A stretch of 64,000 nucleotides of DNA from an uncultured Alphaproteobacteria bacterium (GCA_949082785.1 CARVLU010000002.1:4993-68992), one strand, 5' to 3'; positions 60,590 to 62,720 are shown, counted from the first letter of the stretch. Notes: generated from the sequence alone by a model not told the origin. Program-made: numbers and translations.

Positions 60590-62626
60590 TTAACGAATCG
60601 AATGATATGTGTTTCCGCCATAACTGACGTTAATGGACGATGTTGCCTTGCCACTGCCCAGATTGCCATAACAGGCCTGGCCACCGACATTGACATGCAA
60701 CGCGGGGGTTGTCTGCTTGGCCGCGTATAATGGGACCGTCACACTGCCCGTGCGGATTTTGGTCACACCCGCCGCGCACATCGCCGCACATACATACGAC
60801 GACGTCAAATTAAACCCACTGTTGCATACCGTGTTCGCCGCATTGTACGCACAATCAGACGGATATGTAACCGCACCGGCATTTGCCGGGATGTATCCGT
60901 TTGACACACCGCTGTTGCCGCATGTTTTCTTGCACTGGGATTGCGCCGACAATCCCTTTCCACCGGCGGTGTATGGCGACGGACATCCGTAAATCGTAAC
61001 CACCCCCGCTGAATTGGGACTGCCGACACTGCCGGACCCATAAATATTTGTTCCACCCGGACAATAATATCCGGCATGACATGCCTCGCACGTGGTTTTG
61101 CCGTTTGCACTGGACCAATGCCACATGAACTGTCCCGCCGGACACGTTATGGTGATGGGGGTGACAGTGGAATTGCTGGCCTTCACATAACCATGGGGAA
61201 TGCCGATACACGATGATGCGCCGGCATTGGGCTGATATTCCGCGGCACCACTGCACGCGGTGCAACTGGCCGCGGCGGCCGGGGCGTACGTCCCCGCCCC
61301 GCATTTATCACACGAACTGGTACTGCCGTATGCGACATTGTGCGCACCCCGGGCCGTGCCGGCGGAACACGATGCGGTGGTCGTCGTGTTCTTGGTCGTT
61401 AAATATTTACCCCCGGCAACGGCAATCTGGCAGCCTTCTATTTTAGACTGGCCGGTTGTTTTATTATCCGTGTACCCGTTGGGGCAATTCTTGCAAGACG
61501 TGGCCGCCGACGCATCCTGGTACGTGCCGGCACCGCACGCGGTACAGCTGGTGGCATATGTGTATGACCCGTCGGCAACATCACTGCCGATATTCCCAAC
61601 CGCGGTGGTATATGTTCCCGCACTGCACGGGGTGCATGTGTTTGAAAAATCCGACGCCATCGGAATCGAATTGTCGATAAAATATCCCGCATTGCATTCT
61701 GTAAAACGTTTTGGGTATTCACAGTTATTGTAAATATTCGTTGATGCGGAATAGTAACATTTTCCATCACTGCGCCAAAAACCGTGATATTGGTATTCAA
61801 ATGTCCATGTGTCGGCAAGGCTGTTGTCCAGATAACACTGGGTCGCCGCCGTTGCGCCCGTGGGTGCGCGCAGAATGTTCGGCCCGTTATAGGTATGAAC
61901 TTTGTCATTGTTTGGCGGCGGACATGAATATTTGACGCCGCCGGTACAATAAGACGGACTGGTACACTGGGACTGGCCGGTGCGGGTGTTGGCATCCCCC
62001 CCGGTGGAATAATATCCGGCGGTGACGCTTTTGCGGGTGTTGTCGCCGGGGCAATAATATCCATTTCCGCCACACGCCAAACACTGTCCATTGGACAGAT
62101 AATACCCGGCATTACAGCTGTAATTATAACCGGAACCGCTGTTCGTCCATGCGCCATATGAACATGACCCATAACTGTAACTGCCATACGTGTAACCGCC
62201 ACAGTTCCCACTGCCCGTACAAGCGGATGCACCATTTGTGCCGCCCGCCCCGCCCGTGCGGTAACATGTCCGCGATTTCGCACGGGACCAACTGCGCGAT
62301 CCACTGCGCGTTTGATTTTGCTTGTACGAACCGTTGCTGATGTTGACTGTCACAGTCTGACTGGTCGCCGTGCACCCACTGCTGTCCGTGCCCGTATCTG
62401 TGCCGCTGTCGGTGAACGATACGGTCGAACACGCAACGCACGCGTTGCCCGCAGATGTTCCGTTTAAATAAAAGCCCGAATTACATGATGTGTATTTTTT
62501 ATATGTTGGGCAAGTATATCCCGCCGCATAAACCGATGCGGGCACGCAGATGACACACATTGCCGATATCAAACCGACGGTTTTCCTGGCGTATGATAAA
62601 TTCGATAAAATCCCAGAAATCCGCAC
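60590..62626 (-). CDS. Large secreted cysteine-rich protein with many C-x2-C-P-x-G/GYY modules (member C6)
   Basis: 678 aa, about 90 Cys; true start uncertain (track start is GTG). Confidence 0.65.
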   Translation of the reverse strand: MRISGILSNLSYARKTVGLISAMCVICVPASVYAAGYTCPTYKKYTSCNSGFYLNGTSAGNACVACSTVSFTDSGTDTGTDSSGCTATSQTVTVNISNGSYKQNQTRSGSRSWSRAKSRTCYRTGGAGGTNGASACTGSGNCGGYTYGSYSYGSCSYGAWTNSGSGYNYSCNAGYYLSNGQCLACGGNGYYCPGDNTRKSVTAGYYSTGGDANTRTGQSQCTSPSYCTGGVKYSCPPPNNDKVHTYNGPNILRAPTGATAATQCYLDNSLADTWTFEYQYHGFWRSDGKCYYSASTNIYNNCEYPKRFTECNAGYFIDNSIPMASDFSNTCTPCSAGTYTTAVGNIGSDVADGSYTYATSCTACGAGTYQDASAATSCKNCPNGYTDNKTTGQSKIEGCQIAVAGGKYLTTKNTTTTASCSAGTARGAHNVAYGSTSSCDKCGAGTYAPAAAASCTACSGAAEYQPNAGASSCIGIPHGYVKASNSTVTPITITCPAGQFMWHWSSANGKTTCEACHAGYYCPGGTNIYGSGSVGSPNSAGVVTIYGCPSPYTAGGKGLSAQSQCKKTCGNSGVSNGYIPANAGAVTYPSDCAYNAANTVCNSGFNLTSSYVCAAMCAAGVTKIRTGSVTVPLYAAKQTTPALHVNVGGQACYGNLGSGKATSSINVSYGGNTYHSIR

Positions 62627-62690
62627 CGCTTTTTATCCCCCGCTTTGCATAAATTTTCGTCGGCATATTATTACGTGATTAACTGCTTGT

Positions 62691-62720
62691 TATTATACGG
62701 GTTTGCCCCGTTTTTTACAA
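62691..62720 (-). promoter_or_regulatory. Putative sigma70 promoter for C6 (TTGTAA-17-TATAAT on minus strand)
   Basis: rc: TTGTAAaaaacggggcaaacccgTATAATa. Confidence 0.4.

Follow-up and report, generated by a model that had tools for sequence, protein, structure and literature searches.

The cwpV switch of Clostridioides difficile, served by the recombinase RecV, is a 195-bp element bounded by 21-bp inverted repeats; it holds neither a promoter nor an open reading frame (ORF), and it works by way of a terminator that forms in the OFF transcript (PMC2784873). Here we describe a shorter invertible cassette in a 64,000-nt stretch of DNA from an uncultured Alphaproteobacteria bacterium of the gut (GCA_949082785.1, CARVLU010000002.1:4993-68992; the window, with positions counted from its first letter), where it precedes two paralogous genes for Cys-rich secreted proteins, locus 1 and locus 2. 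The DNA inversion is precise, occurs at identical flanks and follows an in-frame coding logic; it recurs at several loci, and not in one species only. We consider it quite likely that the cassette is an ON/OFF switch of translation and export for these proteins. As at cwpV, whose recombinase is encoded elsewhere, a fixed promoter lies upstream and a short invertible element stands before the body of a surface-protein gene (PMC2784873). Unlike cwpV, the element is 78-79 bp long and carries a Shine-Dalgarno (SD) sequence, a start codon and leader codons, with no predicted terminator or significant RNA structure.

Other described systems resemble the cassette in part. The mpl genes of Mycoplasma penetrans each have an invertible promoter bounded by 12-bp non-identical repeats, and one trans-acting tyrosine recombinase acts on them (summary in PMC3047005). 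The likeness is that of a multigene family of surface proteins in a host-associated bacterium with a reduced genome, each gene with its private short element; the mpl element is the promoter, whereas here the promoter is fixed and the element comprises the start of translation and a portion of the signal peptide. The vsa system of Mycoplasma pulmonis and the mba/UU172 system of Ureaplasma use a block of promoter, ribosome-binding site (RBS) and 5′ coding sequence, with Xer-like tyrosine recombinases implicated (PMC3047005). There too, inversion sets an RBS and the 5′ coding region of a signal peptide before a gene body; in vsa and mba, however, one expression site is moved among silent genes by large inversions (PMC3047005). 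In contrast to vsa, vpma and vsp, every gene here has its own promoter and private cassette and is ON or OFF by itself.

The Hin, Gin, Cin and Pin systems invert a kilobase segment, have the invertase in or near it and use an enhancer, whereas 78-79 bp leaves no room for a gene. The invertons of gut Bacteroidales, surveyed with PhaseFinder and PhaVa, either flip promoters or act within genes by recoding or premature stops (PMC10028968). Like the cassette, they are short, lie between inverted repeats, flip in bacteria of the gut and affect molecules of the cell surface (PMC10028968); start codons and signal peptides are unmentioned in the text of that paper. One published systematic search for inversions that alter genes accepted no inverted repeats under 22 bp (PMC9881135) and would miss repeats of 4-11 bp like those here, so such switches have likely been under-counted. 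In an incomplete literature search we found no description of a per-gene cassette of SD, start codon and partial signal peptide behind a fixed promoter. The design would be distinct among phase-variation systems, in that the flip moves the RBS, the start codon and half of the signal peptide and leaves the promoter in place.

The inverted segment at locus 1 and locus 2

Repeat finding and MAFFT alignment agree that 54312-54390 at locus 1 and 62580-62657 at locus 2 are homologous segments of 78-79 bp. The repeat finder reports a direct repeat on the + strand (54293-54385 and 62561-62653; 93 nt, 75% identity) and an inverted repeat (54388-54429 and 62541-62582; 42 nt, 83% complementary). Exact copies of the 16-mer CCAGAAATCCGCACCG lie at 54345 and 62613, and with up to three mismatches it has 5 matches in the window against 0.88 by chance. 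The gene start CCGTCGGTTTRATRTCGGCAATGTGTGTC has exactly two matches, at 54390 (+) and 62580 (-), where none is expected. Because the segments are colinear on the + strand and the gene starts are opposed, the segment is inverted relative to the gene starts. This bears out the original prediction of a homologous, colinear segment of about 90 bp inverted against conserved starts. A further core match with one mismatch, at 26614, falls inside a lepA-like ORF and is a chance match.

The segment edges are GGGACG (54306-54311) and CGTCGG (54391-54396) at locus 1, and CCGACG (62574-62579) and CGTCGG (62658-62663) at locus 2. The inverted CCGACG/CGTCGG cores first proposed for both loci are therefore present at locus 2; at locus 1 the inverted portion shrinks to GACG/CGTC.

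Locus 1 is read on the + strand. Its fixed promoter, outside the cassette and read from the sequence, occupies 54238-54266 (-35 TTGTTT at 54238-54243, a 17-nt spacer, -10 TATAAT at 54261-54266); the -35 is weak and falls under the threshold of the promoter scanner, and a homologous TTGCxx-N17-TATAAT stands at the equivalent place in all other-species copies. The promoter-proximal recombination site (54292-54311, +) consists of the outer arm GTGCCGAATACAAT and the core GGGACG, and the arm motif ATGCC(G/T)AATCCAA(A/T) upstream of the cassette is conserved in all species. The 79-bp invertible stretch (54312-54390) is in the OFF orientation in the window, with its initiation region on the antisense strand (54312-54373, -): the SD GGGGGA (54373-54368), a 9-nt spacer, GTG (54358-54356) and codons for RISGILLNLFCIRKI. 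The gene-proximal site (54391-54410, +), which joins the core CGTCGG to the outer arm TTTAATGTCGGCAA, also encodes signal-peptide residues. In this OFF state the body of the gene for a Cys-rich secreted protein (54391-54748, +) is without SD, start and leader; once inverted, the initiation region is in frame with the gene, and the product exists as a protein entry, P0139.

Locus 2 is read on the - strand and is in the ON orientation. Its fixed promoter, TTGTAA-17-TATAAT (62692-62720, -), was found by the promoter scan with 10/12 matches. The promoter-proximal site (62658-62668, -) has the core CCGACG on the gene strand and a truncated outer arm, reading ATGCC|GACG, which is about 11 bp shorter than at locus 1 and at a third paralog, locus 3 (described below), as judged from the left junctions against contigs L088 and L089. 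The invertible stretch (62580-62657) measures 78 bp, and its sense initiation region (62580-62641, -) holds the SD GGGGGA (62641-62636), a 9-nt spacer, GTG (62626-62624) and codons for RISGILSNLSYARK. The gene-proximal site (62560-62579, -) comprises CGTCGG on the gene strand and the outer arm TTTGATATCGGCAA, and the resulting ON-state ORF (60590-62626, -) encodes a Cys-rich repeat protein of 678 amino acids, whose C-terminal domain is shared with locus 1.

Both proteins are Cys-rich and have in common a hydrophobic N-terminal stretch, ..VGL(M/I)SAMCV..A(L/V)(G/Y)A|AGY.CP, and a C-terminal domain of about 60 amino acids. Their family matches amount to a single weak Ephrin_rec_like repeat in the locus 2 protein, and an NCBIfam search with the proteins gave no match.

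Both orientations at identical flanks

At locus 1, a search with the in-silico ON protein as query retrieved P0003, encoded on contig L045, in which the gene is ON. Compared with the window, L045 has 167 nt of identical left flank followed by the 79-bp stretch reverse-complemented with one single-nucleotide difference. A 16.7-kb contig (L089) is 99.75% identical to window 45541-62264, and its cassette gives an 87-bp reverse BLAST match of 100% to 54308-54394, that is, the segment plus the 4-bp cores. In a metagenome-assembled genome (MAG) from NCBI, L090, the locus 1 segment is exactly reverse-complemented, as in L089. The promoter-proximal site, 54292-54311, is unmoved in all three contigs in which the segment is inverted (L045, L089, L090). 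P0139, encoded on L089, is the ON leader fused to the exact locus 1 allele of the window and falls in the cluster of the OFF protein. Eight further records have locus 1 OFF.

Locus 3, which follows TcpQ-Secretin, is found just outside the window, about 10 kb upstream of locus 2. It is OFF in L052 and L082 and ON in L048 and L088. L052 and L048 agree exactly over 361 nt of left flank and 173 nt of right flank, whereas the 78-bp segment of one is the exact reverse complement of that of the other. The 725-amino-acid ON protein of locus 3, predicted by an in-silico flip, is an exact database entry (P0124, 16 contigs), and the OFF form of the same allele is P0125 (13 contigs). A second allele likewise occurs in both states, ON as P0128 (18 contigs) and OFF as P0127 (61 contigs).

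These near-isogenic public assemblies, with both orientations at identical flanks, uphold the proposal of a site-specific invertible segment serving as a phase or leader switch. The idea that the two paralogs are fixed in alternate states did not hold for locus 1, which flips in other samples; locus 2 has been seen one way only, being ON in every record (the window, L002, L006, L007, L070, L075 and L084), and its exact ON protein occurs in 165 blocks of the assembly collection. The truncated promoter-proximal arm suggests that locus 2 may be locked ON.

Genes 2 and 3 are in direct orientation and separated by about 10 kb that includes dnaA, dprA and plsY. Their 5′ parts, of about 270 amino acids, are nearly identical (L052 and L088 against window 61800-62560), which suggests gene conversion. 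Three contigs look chimeric, in that the Secretin flank runs into gene 2: L003, L005, where an N-gap falls exactly on the left site, and L008, which begins exactly at the left core. Exchange between loci at the sites was considered for them and rejected, since the near-identical 5′ parts explain the joins by collapsed-repeat assembly or homologous recombination. All three contigs were excluded from the evidence.

A cassette shared across species

A scan with AAAATYCCAGAAATCCGCA, run on one genome per species, found 10 copies of the cassette in three MAGs: CAXHMP01 (an uncultured alphaproteobacterium; n=2), JAAVBR01 (n=6) and JADINE01 (Ca. Enterousia excrementavium; n=2). The remaining 25 matches are lone chance matches in unrelated taxa. 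Each of the 10 copies has a TTGxxx-N17-TATAAT promoter, about 25 nt further on the site ATGCC(T/G)AATCCAAA-GGGACG-TTTG.., a segment of about 75 nt, the site ..CCAAA-CGTCGG-TTTG.., and after it a gene whose product is secreted and in most cases Cys-rich.

In an alignment of 13 copies from 4 species, 11 are in the OFF orientation (A), with the initiation region antisense to the gene, and 2 in the ON orientation (B), in which it is sense and in frame (window locus 2 and L033 of JAAVBR). A 19-nt block, AAAAT.CCAGAAATCCGCA, is invariant in 13/13 copies (window 54336-54358 and 62604-62626; alignment columns 37-55). On its other strand it reads RTG CGG ATT TCT GGN ATT TT, a start codon followed by R-I-S-G-I-(L/F), and GGAGG, GGGGG or AGGGGA stands 7-9 nt upstream of the RTG. 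The leaders, for example MRISGIFILGLLSYANVGLF.. and MRISGILSNLSYARKTVGLISAMCVICVPASVYA|A, have a charged N-terminus and in some species the entire hydrophobic core, so that by reading of the sequences they appear to be N-terminal parts of signal peptides.

Inverted repeats of 4-12 bp at constant spacing bound all 13 copies, and they vary by species yet remain complementary (GACGTTTG/CAAACGTC, GACGGTTG/CAACCGTC, ACCGATT/AATCGGT and CCGACG/CGTCGG). We inverted the 11 OFF copies in silico, each about its own inverted repeat, with a reading limit of 171 codons. In all 8 copies with unambiguous repeats (7-11 bp), which come from the three other MAGs, the SD, RTG and RISGI.. came into frame with the gene, stop-free for at least 171 codons. 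The copies with GACG/CGTC-type pairing only (window locus 1, locus 3 and L010) gave an in-frame fusion in 3/3 under the same pairing rule, whereas the three alternative diagonals all met stops within 52 codons or fewer.

The proposed switch is as follows. Each family gene would have a fixed sigma-70-type promoter and, about 45 nt downstream, a 78-79-bp cassette between inverted recombination sites, the promoter-proximal one with the core GGGACG or CCGACG and the gene-proximal one with CGTCGG. One cassette strand is predicted to supply the SD, an RTG start and 15-17 codons (MRISGI(L/F)...) for the N-terminal part of the signal peptide; the gene body, together with the fixed gene-proximal site, would encode the remainder. 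The cassette would be inverted by a site-specific recombinase. When it is ON, as at locus 2 in the window, the mRNA would carry the SD, the start and a full export signal, and the Cys-rich protein would be made and secreted; when it is OFF, as at locus 1, the SD, start and leader would lie on the antisense strand, leaving the body with no proper start and leader. From the sequences we infer that the flip affects expression and export, that a recombinase catalyses it, and that it can be reversed within a population.

No Rfam family matched the cassette, no terminator was predicted in the cassette transcripts, and RNA folding against shuffled sequences gave nothing significant (z of +1.4 for the OFF transcript and of -0.4 and +1.0 for two ON transcripts). 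An RNA element or riboswitch was accordingly set aside, as the Rfam search of the cassette drew no match and folding was no better than shuffled in either orientation. The promoter scan found no gene-directed promoter inside the cassette. With no internal promoter, Rfam family or RNA structure, the simplest reading is an ON/OFF switch acting at translation initiation and export. A miniature inverted-repeat transposable element inserted either way round was also rejected, because the flanks are identical and the segment holds in-frame coding signals.

It was originally proposed that each locus carries one live leader and a reverse-complement remnant of the other. In a leader swap, both orientations would be expressed with different functional N-termini (VRISGI... 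against LHSPVLHKI- or MPNPNVGL-), and a flip would alter localisation instead of turning the gene ON or OFF. Such a leader swap is unlikely. In the JAAVBR and CAXHMP copies an in-frame ATG (MPNPNVGL...) does precede the gene in the A orientation, and in the window an in-frame TTG is present at locus 1. However, these A-orientation start codons have no SD, and their N-termini lack a charged n-region or full hydrophobic core; the MPNPNVGL ATG belongs to the repeated site arm ATGCCTAATCCAAA and is missing in the window species and in Enterousia. LHSPVLHKI- cannot be sustained as a live leader either, being antisense read-through with no SD and a start that is not conserved. Only the VRISGI... leader has an SD and start conserved across species, which argues for an ON/OFF switch and not a leader swap.

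OFF genes are also mostly skipped or truncated by gene callers, which speaks against the swap. The locus 1 ORF ends at 54748 and is 128 amino acids long if it starts with the TTG, or 115 (P0001) if it starts with the ATG at 54401; in the OFF state the gene is either skipped or called from that ATG. It is uncalled in four ENA assemblies (L001-L004, 5606-6217, corresponding to window 54193-54804). Genes under such a switch are thus missed or truncated in annotation while they are OFF.

Recombination sites, the enzyme and genomic setting

In each site a pair of inverted arms, about 14 bp each, encloses an asymmetric spacer or core of about 6 bp, a layout that resembles recombinase core sites. Upon a flip the dinucleotides flanking the ACG/CGT core remain with the flanks, which places the crossover inside the core. 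The geometry fits a tyrosine recombinase, and from the site alone a serine enzyme would also be possible. Cre is reported to need about 82 bp between its sites. If that figure holds, the centre-to-centre spacing here, about 85 bp, would be near the lower limit.

A second, divergent and shorter cassette occurs at L021:1000-1130, upstream of a family gene with its own SD and ATG. It has perfect 14-6-14 sites, ATGCCTAATCCAAA-CGACCC-TTTGGATTAGGCAT and ATGCCTAATCCAAA-GGGTCG-TTTGG.., whose spacers are exact reverse complements, and its interior retains a degenerate CCCAGAAATCCGGG core only. It may be a decayed switch or one of a different kind.

Searches of the window and the loci by tblastn with XerD, FimB and Hin (approximate queries) found a housekeeping-type XerC beside L021 only, and no match to a serine recombinase in the window or the loci examined. 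The XerC beside the two L021 loci is not regarded as an invertase dedicated to them. Clade-wide, its orthologues share about 75% identity and lie in TrpS-SIMPL-XerC-SmpB synteny, and since this synteny is conserved without family genes the adjacency carries no weight. An integrase-like ORF at 24380-25396 (-), of 338 amino acids, has Arm-DNA-bind_3 and Phage_int_M domains; its catalytic domain falls under the Pfam threshold and there is no Tyr in the final 37 residues. It was dismissed as the recombinase of the window on account of this degeneracy, and probably represents what is left of a P4-like integrase that is now dead. A tRNA-Pro gene (19353-19429) lies about 5 kb from it.

Several observations weigh against a programmed ON/OFF switch. 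No recombinase gene was found beside the loci of this species, nor an intact one in the window, and at loci 1 and 3 the inverted-repeat cores are just 4 bp. OFF bodies retain ATG or TTG codons from which residual translation is possible, and assemblies report the majority orientation only, which bears on whether both states exist within one population. The 19-nt block is unchanged at synonymous codon positions too (CGG ATT TCT GGN ATT); coding alone seems insufficient to account for this, which points to an extra constraint outside the model. A protein, either an accessory factor of the recombinase or a regulator, may bind to the block.

Some of these points would suit inversion with no dedicated recombinase, through replication template-switching or short-homology recombination, with the result a tolerated polymorphism and not a programmed switch. 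It is favoured by the very short repeat cores (4-11 bp) and by the fact that no invertase was found nearby. Nevertheless, the same precise junctions recur at three loci and again in a second species, the cores lie between conserved arms, each about 14 bp long (perfect 14-6-14 sites in L021), cassette length, frame, SD and start are conserved across species, and the ON and OFF forms of one allele are both common. We therefore give this explanation little credence, as with the leader swap.

It is very improbable that the cassette is a classical invertible promoter of the fimS type, in which the promoter travels with the segment. Although this is the commonest type among described invertons, every copy has a conserved -35/-10 (TTGxxx-N17-TATAAT) outside the cassette and upstream of its promoter-proximal site, there is no gene-directed promoter inside, and the conserved block consists of an SD and start codon. 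The fossil of a single ancient inversion, which the original prediction had allowed, or an assembly artefact would fit the window alone, with its one state per locus, but both are refuted by contigs and proteins in both states: locus 1 and locus 3 are each seen both ways between identical flanks, near-isogenic contigs from independent pipelines (ENA, Logan, JGI and NCBI MAGs) differ by the exact inversion only, and repeats this short are unable to mislead assemblers.

A broader version of the ON/OFF switch is a tentative suggestion, with a rather small chance of being right. The cassettes would form a new minimal class of switch, in which a 78-bp cassette near the lower size limit for recombinase synapsis controls translation and export through a flip of the SD, the start and the N-terminal part of the signal peptide at many loci of Rs-D84-like gut Alphaproteobacteria with reduced genomes, the housekeeping XerC/XerD pair is co-opted with no dedicated invertase, and the 19-nt block is a shared protein-binding element that coordinates the loci.

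The relatives that carry the cassette are uncultured gut Alphaproteobacteria, including Ca. Enterousia. Genomes of the order Rs-D84, the group of Ca. Enterousia, are reported to be smaller than 1 Mbp, and the lifestyle is probably partner-dependent (PMC12306168). Several genes of these poorly known bacteria share the design, which is conserved from species to species; this suggests that variable Cys-rich proteins, at the surface or secreted, are the interface that they vary. The genes neighbouring the two loci are chromosomal housekeeping genes (uvrC, pgsA, a parE/gyrB-like gene and dnaJ), and dnaA lies just outside the window.

Three more small Cys-rich secreted proteins are encoded at 21293-21871 (-), 41223-41759 (-) and 59775-60272 (-), with CxxC...GYY-type repeats; these genes have an ordinary SD and ATG of their own and no invertible cassette. 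A repeat of about 80-270 bp, dispersed or in tandem and 75-81% identical, occurs at 60270-60343 (-), 45324-45445, 45718-45978 and 45965-46235, and one copy (60316-60398), upstream of the small Cys-rich gene, matches the Rfam family sRNA-Xcc1 at 38 bits, below its gathering score of 53. Proteins with collagen-like G-X-Y repeats are encoded at 33354-33857 (-) and 35044-36804 (-), adjoining glycosyltransferase genes, a surface content that is unusual for a small genome.

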